This document shows positions 28,289 to 47,204 of a stretch of DNA of 64,000 bases, one piece after another. The stretch's first letter is position 1; the number at the start of each line of letters is the position of its first letter. A program made the translations under genes and the position numbers. The notes beneath the pieces were generated by a model. The model did no database searches and was not told the DNA's origin. It worked only from the letters and a program-made list of their open reading frames with translations. This DNA comes from Amphiscolops sp. MND2022 (lineage: Eukaryota): NCBI GenBank assembly GCA_964187785.1, contig OZ076409.1:11534001-11598000 (forward strand), in the 5' to 3' direction.

Positions 28289-28974
28289 TGTAACGTCTGC
28301 CACCGGCATGACCAAAATTTCGATGAAAAATTCGAAATGTGCGATGTCAAAATAGAAGAAAAAAGATGGCCGACCTGACAGGTACCAAAGGTGTGAAAGA
28401 AAAAAGATAACACGCGGAGAGCGAGCAAGAAAGAGAACACGTGCCGGAAAAACAGCAGAAAAAGATGAAAGAGCAAGAAGATCGAGGAATGTCACGATGG
28501 CAATTATCGGGATGTTGTGTCATCTCCTACGAAATTCAACAATATCAGATGAAAATTGCGAGAGGCATATTCCGAATTATGGCTTGAAACTGTAAAGTAA
28601 TTGGGGTTTATCCCACGATATTTGGAAGATGTTTGACCTTCTAGGTCATTTTATATCTTATTTGCCAAATACTATGTTTTCCAGCTAAATCACTGTTTTG
28701 AGCTCGGAGGCATGTAGGAATTCGCAGGAGTACATTAGAACCCTTAGGATTGTTTTTACAGGCTTGTGGGGCGTGTCCGGACTTTGAGAGTGCCGGCGCG
28801 TCGCTTTGGAGCTCTAACCAGAGAAGCCTCCTTAGACGTTAGAAAAGTCCCCCTTGGAGACCATTTTGGGATCAAAAACTAGTGTCTAGGTATGTAGTAA
28901 GACAAAGGTCTCCTGTTTAAGCATCCTAGGCATTGTCCCTCTTCCTAGATGTGCGCCGCTAGCCGGACGTTACA
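28289..28974 (+). repeat. 5' LTR (686 bp)
   Basis: TGTAACGTC...GACGTTACA inverted termini; by hand count ~13 substitutions and one 30-bp indel versus the 3' LTR. Confidence 0.97.
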
Positions 28975-28990
28975 TCTGGAATAGTTTTTA

Positions 28991-29007
28991 TGGCGACCAC
29001 AGGGGGA
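28991..29007 (+). promoter_or_regulatory. Primer-binding site, probably tRNA-Arg
   Basis: TGGCGACCACAGGGGGA is complementary to a tRNA 3' end ...TCCC..GTGGTCG-CCA, resembling animal tRNA-Arg(TCG) as recalled. Confidence 0.65.
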
Positions 29008-31835
29008 TATTTTTCATATTGCGTACAGGTAGGAGCAACTTCTGCTTTCCGGCCCTGTTAGGTCCGGATCTAGGAAAAGCTCAAGGGAGGGTCCTAGATT
29101 ATTTTTATAGCGTTTTTCTGGCCCTCTGGGCTTTGTACTGGTGTTATTCCTGCGTTTTCCCCGTGTCTCTGAGGTCTACTTAGAGAAATTAGCCGTTCTT
29201 AACAGTGTACCCCCTTTTTCCTTTCTAAAACCTAATAAAAAAGCTATTCCGGCCTATCCGGAACGTGTTTTAAAGGGTTTTCTAGCTTATTTTCAGCTAA
29301 TATGCAATGTATGGGGACAGAGAGGATGAACGCCGAAGGTTCCCACCAGCTGTGATGACGTGGTGACGTCCTACACAACCACTCCTCCCACGCCCCTGTG
29401 ATTGCAGTACATCACGTCAGACGGGTGAAATCGTCTATTTTCTTAATTTAACGGCCCAAAAAGAGTATTCCCATGCCTATCACCATTATAACTAACTGAG
29501 AAAAATACCCATAGGGTATTCCGATTAGTTGTTAAAAAATTTGAGCTCGAAAACCTCGAAAATAACGTTATTTATAGCTCAATTACCGAAATTTTCAATT
29601 TTGAAAGCAAATATTTTATCAAACAGAGTAAGGCCAGTGGGAATACTAGAAAAACGTTCCAACAGACCCCCTGGACAGGAACAAAAAGTTTTGCAGGGCC
29701 ATTTTTCCAAAAATAGCGAAAAATTCAGCAATTTTTGTTAAAAAATCGTCAAATTTGGCCATTTTGACCCAACTTGACGAGGGCAAAGCCTTGGACGCTA
29801 ACTTCCAAGCTTCCGAATCAGCACAAAAATCTTTTCCCCCAACTTGGTAGTACGAAACACTACTTCCAAGTTGCTTTTTAAGGCTCTCCAATAAAAATTG
29901 AAACTTTAATAACTTGTTTCTTTTGATATACATAGACCTGAGCAGAGGACCCCATAGACCTGAGCAATATAACATCAAAAACAATAACTGAACGAACCCC
30001 AGCCCCTTAAAATAAGTTGTCACACTCTCTCACAGTACTATTGGAACAATCCCAAACGCCCAAGAACCGATAAATAAAAATTTCTTGGTGAAAACACGTT
30101 ATTTCAGTATTGTTCCGAGAGTGTAAAAAGTGCAACTTGAAAAACTTTTGATAGACCCTATTTGGAACCTACCAGGTTTCACTTGCTTGTTTTCTGTTAG
30201 TATATACCCTCACGTTGCAAACGCAGAAAACTGCGAGTGATTCCAACCAGTGGTTGTCGAGAAATTGCCAAAAACGCAACATTTTAGTGACAATTTCGGA
30301 ACATTGGTGTAGTGTTACCAGAACAGGTCGAAATCTCTCCCAGCAGGAGCAGCTCAAAACGAATTGCACCATCGTGTAGATCGCAAAAAGTTACGTTAGT
30401 GGTGTAATTTTCATTGCGCTAGCGCTGCTAGTCCTCGAGAAATCTTAGCCGCAGTTTTGCTCAAAAAGTGTACGAAATTGTCGAAAAAATCGAATTTTAG
30501 TTGAGCATAGTGCAATACCTTGCAGGTATCCCAGCACTGAAATTCCCTCATTTTCGTGCGCACGGCACTAGATCACGACGATTTGTCCAATTTGAGCAGC
30601 CTGCTACTAACCAAAGCTGAGAAATTGACATTTTTGTGAATTTTGACCCGAAAAAGTGGCACCTCAGGTACATAAAGGTTTTGTCACCTCGAATCGCCAC
30701 GTATCAATCCAGGCCCCTCGCCGGGTGTTTGAGGTAGCTATTTCAGGTAGCTAGAACGCCCAGAAGGCGAGTTTGACTACTTTTTGCGAATTTCGCGACA
30801 TAGTCAATTTTTTAATGAACATTGTTAAGTGACCGTAACACCCAAAGGGTCAATTTCTGTACAATCGGCGTTCAATTTCCCACGATTCAGCTGATGTAAT
30901 ATATGGTTTGAAATTTTCAAGTCGCTACGAGCTCTGGAAGTGATTTTCACCCTTCCCAGACGTGCCGATTGACGACAAATTTGCTAATTTCGCGAAAATT
31001 GAACAGAGAACAGCCCCCTTCCAGTCCCCAACAACCCATGTAAGGACTTGCAAACAACTCTTCAATACAAGGAGCACCCCCCACGCTCCCAACAGAGCCG
31101 CATCGACTGCCATAGCAGTACTCCCAAAACCTACAGCCTCCAAAGAACTCACTCTGCTGACCAAAAAAATTGGACAACTCAGTACCGAATTTACTAAAAA
31201 AGTAAAACTGTATCCCCATTAGCTCAACAGCTTTAATCCAAATCGCCTTCCTAACTAAACCCTTTCTTTCGTACCAATCCCCGAATCCTTTTCCAATCCT
31301 CCATTCCACTGTACCCGAATCAGAAAGTTGAGAAAACTTAGTGAGTGACAAGTTTGTCCAATCGAAAGAGCGCACTGCGCTTAGACCATATTGACCACTA
31401 CCATCCATCCAAATAATTAGCCACCCATAACACTGATCAAAGCTCTATAGGCTATTCCATTGCCTATTCCAAAGTAAATTAGCAAGTAAAACGTAAATAA
31501 TCTTTAACCACAAAAAAAATTCCGTTCCCCTCCACTCAGTGGAGAAAAGAAACGAAGCTTTCAGTTAAATATTAGTATTTAGAATCAAACTAGCCCTCTT
31601 ACCAAAGCTAGTACTAACCTTTTTGTTGACCTCAATTCTGCAGTCGCGCCCTGCCTATAGCGACCACATACATGTAATTTAAAAAATTTTTTTTTGAAAA
31701 ATCAACACGAGTACCTAAAATCATCTTCCATCCTTTCTTTGGAGGGAAGGGTGAGACAAATAAATTAAAAATTCTTTATTCAAGAATTCCCCTTTTTGTT
31801 TACAACCAGAACCCATACGCCAAAAATTGACCAGA

Positions 31836-45935: not shown

Positions 45936-46480
45936 AAGAACAACAACCGACGCTGAGCCGTTCAATCTGAAAATAAAAACTTGCCTTTGAATAGACAGGA
46001 CTTTACCCTAATGGTCTTAGACCATTGCATTTTTGTTGGTGCTAAGACACTGAATTGCAAAGTAATACTTATTATCTACTTAAATTTTAGTTCATCTGCA
46101 TCATGTGGGTGGGCCCTGAGCCAGTGCCCACCCTCTCTAGTTCGGTAATTAACCATTGTTACCAAGACTTGAATTTTGTTACCTGGAGGAGTGCTAAAGC
46201 ACTTTCTAGAAAAAAGATTTTAATCTAAGTTTGCGAAATTGCTTGCAAATTTTGAGGTTGTCAATCATAAATTTTAGTTTTGTCCAGTGATTATTTTTAG
46301 TTATCGTAAGACCAACTGATATTAATACGAGGAAATAACAAAAGAAAAGTTTGGAGGTTGAAAGAAAGCAAGTAGGGAAACAACGAAACCTTCCTAAGGT
46401 GTTCAAAAAACTCTCAGCATTGCTATCACCCTCTGGGTATTAGCATCCTCTCGTTTGCCGAGGACGACAAACTACGGCTC

Positions 46481-46488
46481 GGGGAGGA
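46481..46488 (+). promoter_or_regulatory. Polypurine tract
   Basis: GGGGAGGA directly before the TG of the 3' LTR. Confidence 0.85.
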
Positions 46489-47204
46489 TGTAACGTCTGC
46501 CACCGGCATGACCAAAATTTCGATGAAAAATTCGAAATGTGCGATGTCAAAATAGAAGAAAAAAGATGGCCGACCTGACAGGTACCAAAGGTGTGAAAGA
46601 AAAAAGATAACACGCGGAGAGCGAGCAAGAAAGAGAACACGTGCCGGAAAAACAGCAGAAAAAGATGAAAGAGCAAGAAGATCGAGGAATGTCAGGATGC
46701 CAATTATCGGGATGTTGTGTCATCTCCTACGAAATTCAACAATATCAGATGAAGATTGCCAGAGGCATATTCCGAATTATGGCTTGAAACTGTAAAGTAA
46801 TTAGGGTTTATCCCCGTTTTTCCTCGTTATTTTCATAATTCCCTTCGATATTTCGAAAATGTTTGACCTTCTAGGTCATTTTATATCTTATTTGCCAAAT
46901 ACTATGTTTTCCAGCTAAATCACTGTTTTGACCTCGGAGGCATGTAGGAATTCGCAGGAGTACATTAGAAACCTTAGGATTGTTTTTACAGGCTTGTGGG
47001 GCGTGTCCGGACTTTGAGAGTGCCGGCGCGTCGCTTCGGAGCTCTAACCACAGAAGCCTCCTTAGACGTTAGAAAAGTCCCCCTTGGAGACCATTTTGGG
47101 ATCAAAAACTAGTGTCTAGGTATGTAGTAAGACAACGGTCTCCTGTTTAAGCATCCTAGGCATTGTCCCTCTTCCTAGATGTGCGCCGCTAGCCGGACGT
47201 TACA
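46489..47204 (+). repeat. 3' LTR (716 bp)
   Basis: Direct repeat of 28289-28974 with an extra 30 bp flanked by TCCC microhomology. Confidence 0.97.

Follow-up and report, generated by a model that had tools for sequence, protein, structure and literature searches.

How does a long terminal repeat (LTR) retrotransposon come to be nearly 19 kb long, and is its extra sequence kept for a purpose or merely carried along? The question is raised by a 64,000-nt stretch of the Amphiscolops sp. MND2022 genome (assembly GCA_964187785.1, contig OZ076409.1, 11,534,001 to 11,598,000), here called the window; all coordinates are positions within it. An initial sequence-only reading had placed at 28289-47204 an oversized Ty3/gypsy element with a virus-like cargo, namely, tandem macrodomains and a third open reading frame (ORF3) with an SGNH fold. 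We found that the element at this locus is dead and belongs to a young, very abundant family of ~19-kb Ty3/gypsy-type elements, whose extra length is intrinsic and maintained by selection rather than made of nested insertions. As for function, we tentatively favor a selected cargo in which the Pol tail is a non-catalytic binding module and ORF3 is an accessory protein; taken as a whole, this reading falls a little short of an even chance.

A giant Ty3/gypsy family with one layout

The 18.9-kb element is an LTR retrotransposon of the Ty3/gypsy type and lies on the + strand (Table 1). Its LTRs are 98.2% identical, with 12 mismatches over 685 aligned bases and one 30-bp indel, and both begin with TGT and end with ACA. 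Along 35074-38750, Pfam places protease (PR), reverse transcriptase (RT), RNase H, and integrase (IN) on the + strand in the order PR-RT-RNase H-IN, which is that of Ty3/gypsy elements. The zinc knuckle of Gag scored slightly below its Pfam cut-off, and close relatives carry PF00098 as a precomputed annotation. The nearest named proteins are only 30 to 43% identical and are annotated as generic gypsy Pol. Seven of the 12 ORF pieces matched no Pfam family, among them all five that span the Pol tail and ORF3. The LTRs, a tRNA-Arg primer binding site (PBS), a polypurine tract (PPT), and the domain order thus bear out the claimed class and architecture, and the sizes claimed for the leader, gag-pol, and ORF3 were correct.

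Full-length relatives were found elsewhere in the genome (1.07 Gb, 1,929 contigs). Copies on C1444, C3, and C5 are colinear with the window element over the full 18.9 kb at 94 to 98% nucleotide identity, and a copy on C10 is colinear at 65 to 77%, leader and ORF3 included. A third lineage is represented by an 18,871-bp copy on C5 that has the same layout, with ~712-bp LTRs, a ~2.4-kb leader, and a single 3,225-codon gag-pol frame ending in a homologous tail. This tail is 88% identical to the protein P0032, itself 36 to 40% identical to the C10 tail. At the protein level, the tail of the third-lineage copy shows 36 to 46% identity and its ORF3 homolog 30 to 34%. All extra regions were colinear in each of the five other full-length copies examined, and an internal deletion in a further copy, on C6, removed gag-pol sequence and not the cargo. 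Nested insertions would be absent from other copies, but the regions are present in them; with full-length colinear copies and one layout in three lineages, they are integral to the family. The different flanks and target-site duplications argue against these copies being segmental duplications of one locus. The duplication is imperfect in the window copy (AAAT versus AATC); it is a perfect 4 bp in two of six copies (ATTT and GTAA) and a 3-bp match only in the other four. LTR pairs of six copies are 98.2 to 99.7% identical. The 30-bp LTR indel of the window copy lies at 28615, opposite 46815-46845; LTRs of sister copies measure ~716 to 720 bp, and therefore the deletion sits in the 5' LTR.

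The PBS of the window copy has one mismatch to the complement of tRNA-Arg(TCG). The sequence TGGCGACCACAGAGGGAT is located 15 to 16 nt past the LTR in five other copies from three lineages, in which the spacer differs. When up to one mismatch was allowed, the PBS 17-mer occurred 3,162 times in the genome, versus 4 times for a reversed control; this count corresponds to roughly three thousand PBS-bearing copies across related lineages. A pattern made of the PBS complement without CCA, joined to a T-arm consensus, matched 365 genomic sites, versus none for the control. At two of these loci, ARAGORN called tRNA-Arg in all nine genes, eight of them with anticodon TCG. The complement with CCA as the query matched element copies only and no tRNA gene in five loci. 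Most of the 365 matches lie at C9:57.53-57.57 Mb, where tRNA-Arg(TCG) genes with ~174-bp spacing form a tandem array of very large size; the arrayed tRNA is the primer tRNA of the giant family. The PPT also directly abuts the 3' LTR in four other copies, and the third lineage has GGGGAGTGA.

The window copy itself is broken by in-frame stop codons (32139-32141, 32766-32768, and 34220-34222, the second being a TAG that is CAG in three other copies), by a 1-nt deletion near 34706, and by further frame changes, several of them frameshifts. A frame map against four other copies showed that the breaks fall at differing places. One copy of the window family has a single frame (32291-41452) broken by stops only, and related copies have open gag-pol frames of 3,104 to 3,340 aa. 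Therefore, with one open frame in the relatives and copy-specific breaks, gag-pol and its tail form one reading frame. Programmed frameshifts at the ORFa/gag and gag/pol junctions were considered and rejected, because the breaks are copy specific, the frame is open in relatives, and no phased slippery heptamer was found. A genome search with the ORF3 piece gave 83 scored matches among 3,556 first-look candidates, and five of the 83 contain open ORF3 frames of 1,400 to 1,436 aa with no internal stop.

We then compared amino-acid-changing (pN) and silent (pS) differences between two copies of the window family and the C10 lineage, using natural open frames only and no consensus. Silent differences are saturated (pS of 0.63 to 0.93). 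The pN is 0.03 to 0.04 in the integrase, 0.17 in the tail domain D1 (pS of 0.91 to 0.93), 0.18 in the tail domain D2 (pS of 0.70), 0.18 to 0.26 in the N-domain, the SGNH domain, and two helical regions of ORF3, and 0.29 to 0.35 in the linkers and tail of ORF3. Over ORF3, pN/pS ranges from 0.21 to 0.49 depending on the region. The comparison across copies, which the sequence-only reading had proposed, thus reveals purifying selection on all cargo domains: amino-acid-changing differences are far fewer than silent ones.

The leader is conserved as well. The stretch 28629-30965 is 77% identical in nucleotides to the C10 lineage, with blocks of 82 to 87% at 30229-30677. Mismatches show no 3-base periodicity (168, 147, and 138 at the three positions), and no ORF of the leader is kept between copies. 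An antisense ORF at 29649-30029 was rejected: it is broken in two of three sister copies, and its similarity reflects nucleotide conservation only. Because the leader is conserved like coding sequence despite saturated silent sites, about 2 kb of it (28975-30965) is constrained non-coding sequence. This stretch could be a packaging, export, internal ribosome entry site, or promoter element. Downstream of it, 30965-31942 has no detectable similarity to the C10 lineage; the third-lineage leader has only the PBS in common with the window leader. A search of the whole element against Rfam at E ≤ 1 gave no match.

Table 1. Features of the giant element in the window and of the second element family
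Feature	Position	Strand	Remarks
5' LTR	28289..28974	+	686 bp, TG...CA; direct repeat of 46489-47204
PBS TGGCGACCACAGGGGGAT	28991..29008	+	18 nt, 16 nt past 5' LTR; complementary to tRNA-Arg(TCG) 3' end plus CCA
Leader	28975..31835	+	2,861 nt between 5' LTR and gag-pol
gag-pol	31836..41485	+	9,650 nt; several frames in window copy, one ~3,200-codon frame in intact relatives
CCHC zinc knuckle (Gag)	34274..34321	+	Pfam zf-CCHC E 5.4e-4, 20.4 bits (cut-off 20.8 bits)
Aspartyl protease	35074..35433	+	Pfam gag-asp_proteas E 1.1e-5; also RVP_2, Asp_protease_2
Reverse transcriptase	36277..36717	+	Pfam RVT_1 E 1.2e-26
RNase H, Ty3/gypsy type	36951..37349	+	Pfam RT_RNaseH_2 E 4.1e-13, RT_RNaseH E 9.8e-17
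Integrase (H2C2 zinc domain and DDE core)	38112..38750	+	Pfam Integrase_H2C2 E 1.6e-17, rve E 4.7e-8
AT-hook-like motif RRGRPRGRPP	39771..39800	+	post-integrase linker
Cys-rich knuckle YKCGTCGSRDCSC	40044..40082	+	CxxCxxxxCxC; four Cys nearly invariant in alignment A2
D1, small alpha/beta domain	40481..40783	+	macro-like; model pLDDT 65-79
D2, TARG1/DarG-type macrodomain	41009..41443	+	Arg at catalytic-Lys position (within 41213-41236)
ORF3	41818..45935	+	4,118 nt, ~1,380 codons from first conserved Met; four frame pieces in window copy
SGNH/GDSL-fold domain	43003..43794	+	non-canonical motifs; model pLDDT 85-98
Hydrophobic segment LMPLIAPIVWPIFGAVMALRY	44715..44777	+	only strongly hydrophobic stretch of ORF3
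PPT GGGGAGGA	46481..46488	+	adjoins 3' LTR
3' LTR	46489..47204	+	716 bp; direct repeat of 28289-28974
Second-family element, gypsy type	C12:44814317-~44828063		~13.7 kb; 441-bp LTRs, 99.8% identical

The Pol tail and its macrodomain

Past the integrase, Pol has a disordered linker bearing an AT-hook-like motif, as well as a Cys knuckle and the domains D1 and D2. Tail homologs comprise 29 ENA proteins, at identities down to 36%, of which 10 carry RT or IN Pfam domains. A 17-sequence alignment of the tail (A2) is the basis of its AlphaFold2 (AF2) model, which has two folded parts. The RGRP core of the linker motif lies upstream of the Cys knuckle in all 15 family sequences that cover the linker, which is elsewhere poorly conserved. 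Pfam AT_hook gave weak matches only, in 7 of 17 members (best E of 0.32). A search of the tail against PDB sequences returned nothing relevant, a Pfam scan of the cargo found nothing at E ≤ 10, and the ESM Atlas gave for the tail only a lead, of 0.84, to a phage Macro cluster.

D2 has the fold of a TARG1/DarG-type macrodomain. Foldseek returned 186 matches to the D2 model at E ≤ 1e-3, with TARG1 first (4j5q, E of 9e-9, TM of 0.78 to 0.81). The VIA comparison likewise placed TARG1 (2lgr) at a Z of 16.4, with a root-mean-square deviation (rmsd) of 2.8 over 141 aa, and DarG at a Z of 15.5; other viral and cellular macrodomains followed at Z of 8 to 13. A bridge at the sequence level came from a scan of the genome with the PF01661 profile, which found three strong host genes and three weak hits (28.8 to 29.6 bits) in long ORFs. 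Two of these weak hits (L047 and L048) belong to a second retroelement family. In its C12 copy, gag encodes 412 aa, and the 1,925-aa Pol contains RT, RNase H, IN, and a Macro match of 23.3 bits (cut-off, 22). The Macro domain terminates Pol, matches human TARG1 at E of 3e-27, and retains LVTK and GCGLD where TARG1 has LITK and GCGLD. The D2 profile matches this domain in hhalign (probability of 90.2%, E of 1.6e-6) and in BLASTP (E of 9e-6). Judged from these alignments, D2 is homologous in sequence to TARG1 via the bridging domain of the second family. The Pols of the giant and second families are only 22 to 25% identical, and therefore the integrase-macro fusion is present in distantly related elements.

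The claim of tandem macrodomains held for D2, a genuine macrodomain, and is only weakly supported for D1, which is macro-like. The best single-domain structural match of D1 is the N-domain of PepB, a macro-like aminopeptidase, at a Z of 6.5. In hhalign, D1 aligns in one register with D2 (E of 0.027) and with a canonical macrodomain (E of 0.14). Matches that span two domains, to PARP14 macro1-2 (Z of 11.1, rmsd of 15.5) and SUD (Z of 8.0), do not rise above the single-domain scores. With support at this level for D1, the tandem is therefore unproven.

D2 differs from its closest matches at the active site. Its ...LLCTRAS... stretch aligns with ...LVTKAN... of the second family and ...litkkras... 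of human TARG1. At least 80% of the family sequences that cover the column, 15 of the 17 rows of A2, have this Arg at the Lys position of LVTK. GCGLD, the loop presumed to hold D125 of TARG1, faces YDPGRS in D2 and DPER in most relatives. The catalytic lysines are K84 in TARG1 and K80 in DarG (PMC8501950). Because an Arg occupies the catalytic-Lys position, binding or tethering is favored over hydrolysis. D2 stands where chromoviruses have their chromodomain, and this position, the DNA-hook motif, and the Arg for Lys suggest that the Pol tail is mainly a non-catalytic binding module. In this scenario, the tail would travel with the integrase in the particle. It may tether or shield the pre-integration complex by recognizing ADP-ribose-type marks or nucleic acid, and it would not remove the ADP-ribose mark.

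The alternative that survives best is that the Pol macrodomain is an active ADP-ribosylhydrolase in particles. It would strip ADP-ribose made by poly(ADP-ribose) polymerases or ADP-ribosyltransferases (PARP/ART) from element proteins, RNA, or cDNA, a counter-defense like that of the alphavirus, coronavirus, rubella, and hepatitis E virus macrodomains. The top structural matches of D2, TARG1 and DarG, are indeed hydrolases, and both remove thymidine-linked ADP-ribose from single-stranded DNA (PMC8501950). It is plausible that such a modification would endanger a cDNA intermediate. D2 is also under purifying selection, its CPADL..SA..RY and HLPI.DPER motifs are kept across lineages, and the TARG1-like domain of the second family is canonical, with both LVTK and GCGLD preserved. 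However, the catalytic-Lys position of the giants holds Arg, their GCGLD loop is replaced by YDPGRS or DPER, and the Pfam Macro model reached none of the 17 family members even at E ≤ 1. The Arg and the replaced loop speak against the enzymatic counter-defense role that the sequence-only reading had proposed, and we regard an active eraser in the giants as unlikely.

ORF3 in the envelope position

Eight full-length ORF3 homologs align end to end at 49 to 62% identity (alignment A1), and the start is conserved as MDP(S/A)(S/A)R. When 1.84 billion representatives were searched, 375 relatives came up at E ≤ 1e-3; most of them are fragments, and identities reach down to 27%. None of 17 distant homologs had a Pfam match, and ORF3 found nothing relevant among PDB sequences. 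In the AF2 model, made from 61 sequences, the first ~250 residues are predicted with confidence. In the VIA comparison, the top 50 matches of this domain were all of the SGNH fold (Z of 12.7 to 8.5), including 3p94 (Z of 12.7 over 182 aa), PAF-AH (1bwp, Z of 12.4), and the OSK domain of Oskar (5a4a, Z of 9.0). Foldseek agreed weakly (best E of 7.7e-3).

The motifs of the domain are not those of a canonical esterase. Block I is represented by D-S-T after strand 1 (D in 15 of 16 sequences, S in 15, and T in all 16). At block II there is no conserved Gly after strand 2, and P (20/22) and C (12/22) are found instead. Strand 3 is followed by N (22/23), then D (20/23) and H (19/23), although the register of these residues versus GxND is ambiguous. 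No conserved DxxH follows strand 5, the place of block V, in the aligned sequences. Thus, of the esterase fold that had been claimed, the SGNH fold stands, but a canonical esterase is not supported.

Hydropathy was scanned in two ORF3 proteins (Kyte-Doolittle, 19-residue window, threshold of 1.5). The single hydrophobic segment, around residue 1030 of 1436, varies little or not at all among the A1 sequences. A signal peptide, a fusion-peptide cleavage site, and a C-terminal anchor were not seen in ORF3, the N terminus of which is hydrophilic. BFVD contained no full-length ORF3 analog and no viral glycoprotein match, only SGNH domains of phages and giant viruses at E ≥ 6e-3, and the ESM Atlas gave no usable match for the helical part. 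With one hydrophobic segment and a hydrophilic N terminus, ORF3 is therefore not a classical Env, in agreement with the earlier view that it is no fusogen. We suggest that ORF3 is most likely an accessory protein and that its esterase-like domain would bind a lipid or RNA ligand or hydrolyze it in an atypical way. It may act during assembly or trafficking of the particle or ribonucleoprotein (RNP), on the model of the esterases of long interspersed nuclear element (LINE) ORF1 and of the Oskar OSK domain.

ORF3 could instead be the equivalent of an envelope, with the SGNH lipase-like domain and the hydrophobic segment serving particle exit or entry in an infectious or cell-to-cell-spreading endogenous retrovirus (ERV). 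ORF3 does lie where env would, with pol before it and the PPT after it, and its one hydrophobic segment is conserved. In addition, the second family has in the equivalent position a 783-aa ORF3 that, judged by eye, resembles a fusion glycoprotein, with a furin-like site, a fusion-peptide-like stretch, and a C-terminal membrane anchor. However, ORF3 of the giants has no N-terminal hydrophobic signal or second membrane segment, no furin-site-plus-fusion-peptide arrangement was seen in it, it lacks SGNH blocks II and V in their canonical form, and BFVD yielded no structural match to a viral glycoprotein. We consider this reading quite improbable. That the extra regions are functionless, decaying passengers (nested insertions or captured host fragments) inflating a normal gypsy element with junk is refuted by the copy comparison and hardly credible, for although the window copy is full of stops and frameshifts and neither cargo region has a Pfam match, the layout is colinear in five of five other full-length copies, the sixth lost part of gag-pol and not the cargo, the cargo is retained across lineages with saturated silent sites, and many copies have open frames for ORF3 (1,400 to 1,436 aa) and for gag-pol with its tail (3,100 to 3,340 aa).

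Several points weigh against the favored reading of a binding Pol tail and an accessory ORF3. The second family keeps both the Lys and GCGLD, and the closest matches of D2 are active hydrolases, so erasing may be ancestral and perhaps current. The assignment of K84 to the K of LITK is presumed from the human residue numbering, the printed chain index being offset by 6. The AT-hook is a putative one, called from a short motif. ORF3 keeps a Ser at the nucleophile position and a conserved D-H pair and, going by these residues, may be an active esterase of an atypical kind. Some 600 of its residues are helical, in a low-confidence part of the model, and have no fold assignment. Finally, the AF2 models from which the folds are predicted are of moderate overall quality (mean pLDDT of 52.9 and 64.0).

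A related gypsy Pol in ENA, P0293, has after its integrase a Pfam GDSL match of 30.0 bits (cut-off, 32.9), in which GDS, GTND, and DGIH motifs are visible. A second, ORF3-like stretch lies at its C-terminal end, and the gene model may join pol with a downstream ORF. Its canonical GDSL domain could not be linked to ORF3: the hhalign match is not significant (E of 0.12) and aligns ORF3 with a different part of P0293. Among the best candidates scored, the closest match of P0293 in the genome is only 55% identical, and that of P0308, a remote ORF3 homolog, 29 to 30%. These low identities suggest that both proteins come from other organisms and that the wider group is not confined to the Amphiscolops genome.

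Surroundings, known systems, and meaning

None of nine flanking ORFs in the window has a Pfam match. Upstream of the giant element, several direct repeats of 100 to 150 bp lie at 4958-9123 with ~1.44-kb spacing and 71 to 93% identity, a pattern that suggests a tandemly arranged or repeated element. Two 227-bp direct repeats at 13729-17298, 86% identical and 3,343 bp apart, may flank a small, old element as its LTRs. In this region the ORFs have no Pfam match, and 14-24 kb of the window shows a strong A-over-T skew. A run of 200 N, which may be an assembly gap, occupies 52079-52278.

The cargo can be placed beside several known systems. D2 has the same fold as TARG1/OARD1 and DarG (PDB 4J5Q/4J5S, 2LGR, and 5M3I), as the Z scores of 16.4 and 15.5 indicate. 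It differs from them in the Lys-to-Arg change, the replaced GCGLD loop, a Gly-rich loop turned into S-x-S-A, and its place inside a 3,200-aa polyprotein. The macrodomains of RNA viruses (alphavirus nsP3, coronavirus nsp3 Mac1, and rubella p150) match D2 at Z of 9 to 12 and, like it, are macro folds inside the replicase polyprotein of a selfish replicator. RNA-virus macrodomains are MacroD-type active hydrolases, whereas D2 is of the TARG1 type, belongs to a reverse-transcribing element, and is probably inactive. For ORF3, esterase ORF1 proteins were reportedly described by Schneider et al. in 2013 in CR1/L2/RTEX non-LTR retrotransposons. These LINE proteins and the OSK domain of Drosophila Oskar (5A4A) share the SGNH fold with ORF3, and lipid or RNA binding has been proposed for them; they differ in element class and gene position, and no sequence similarity to ORF3 was detected.

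A close parallel to ORF3 is in the Vesta and Juno LTR retrotransposons of bdelloid rotifers, which have a GDSL esterase/lipase ORF3 (Rodriguez, Kenefick & Arkhipova 2017, PMC5408684). They too are Ty3/gypsy-like, with an SGNH/GDSL-fold third ORF in the env position and no fusogen. GDSL/SGNH ORF3s are also shared with Penelope-like Terminons, their catalytic residues are intact, and the authors propose auxiliary or membrane roles (PMC5408684). The rotifer proteins are detectable by HHpred, keep an invariant S-G-N-H, and have no coiled-coil or transmembrane segments (PMC5408684). In contrast, ORF3 of the giants has ~1,380 aa, no Pfam match, no block II Gly or block V DxxH, and ~900 further conserved residues. 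A macrodomain is unreported for the rotifer elements, the word "macro" occurring 0 times in PMC5408684.

Macro domains have been acquired by other retroelements. Fish epsilon-like ERVs have macro-domain or CNPase ORFs (PMC4977317, citing Basta et al. 2009). These elements belong to the Retroviridae and have the macro domain in an extra ORF, whereas here the element is of the Ty3/gypsy type and the macrodomain is the C terminus of Pol, after the integrase. Chromoviruses are Ty3/gypsy elements with a chromodomain at the integrase C terminus (bioRxiv 10.1101/2021.11.30.470311), where this reader of chromatin marks serves integration targeting. D2 is a macro fold and not a chromo fold, and targeting by D2 would be an analogy.

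Oversized LTR elements are known as well: planarian Burro exceeds 30 kb, plant Ogre measures 16 to 25 kb, and foamy-like fish ERVs reach 17 kb (Arkhipova & Yushenova 2019, PMC6431247). The known giants share with this family thousands of copies, a huge polyprotein, and accessory domains. Burro carries motifs of the BIR, MATH, ankyrin, and BCL2-like kinds, and its gag and pol are separated by an env that is in frame (PMC6431247); none of this was found in the 18.9-kb element, in which Pfam scans showed no such domain. The size of Ogre comes largely from long LTRs, whereas the LTRs here are only ~0.7 kb. The sequence-only reading knew of no described family combining these features. However, GDSL ORF3s (PMC5408684) and macro ORFs (PMC4977317) have been described, and 18.9 kb is within the size range of the giants (PMC6431247). 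A macrodomain in a gypsy Pol or fused to an integrase was not found in the literature searched, which left most subscription journals and Repbase Reports outside it. The tool kit is unusual but not unprecedented, and the integrase-macrodomain fusion in two families, with and without the lysine, is the part most worth pursuing.

ADP-ribosylation is an antiviral and DNA-damage signal, and RNA viruses need macrodomains to escape it. TARG1-type macrodomains on the integrase of two distant LTR families, one with about three thousand copies, suggest that reverse-transcribing elements meet ADP-ribosylation too. A bolder reading, which we find doubtful, is that a ~19-kb LTR superfamily and an unrelated env-bearing family have both wired ADP-ribose biology into the integrase. 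The env-bearing family would have a live TARG1-type eraser, and the giants a dead tandem reader with an AT-hook that steers or protects the pre-integration complex. If true, this would be the first ADP-ribosylation-linked integration or counter-defense module in retrotransposons, and the env slot would hold a new 1,380-aa SGNH-based protein. With one domain apparently catalytically intact and the other lysine-replaced, the two families form a natural pair for asking whether ADP-ribose marks restrict or guide retrotransposition. The giant family itself shows an LTR element reaching 19 kb through selected cargo, a 2-kb non-coding leader included, and not through junk.

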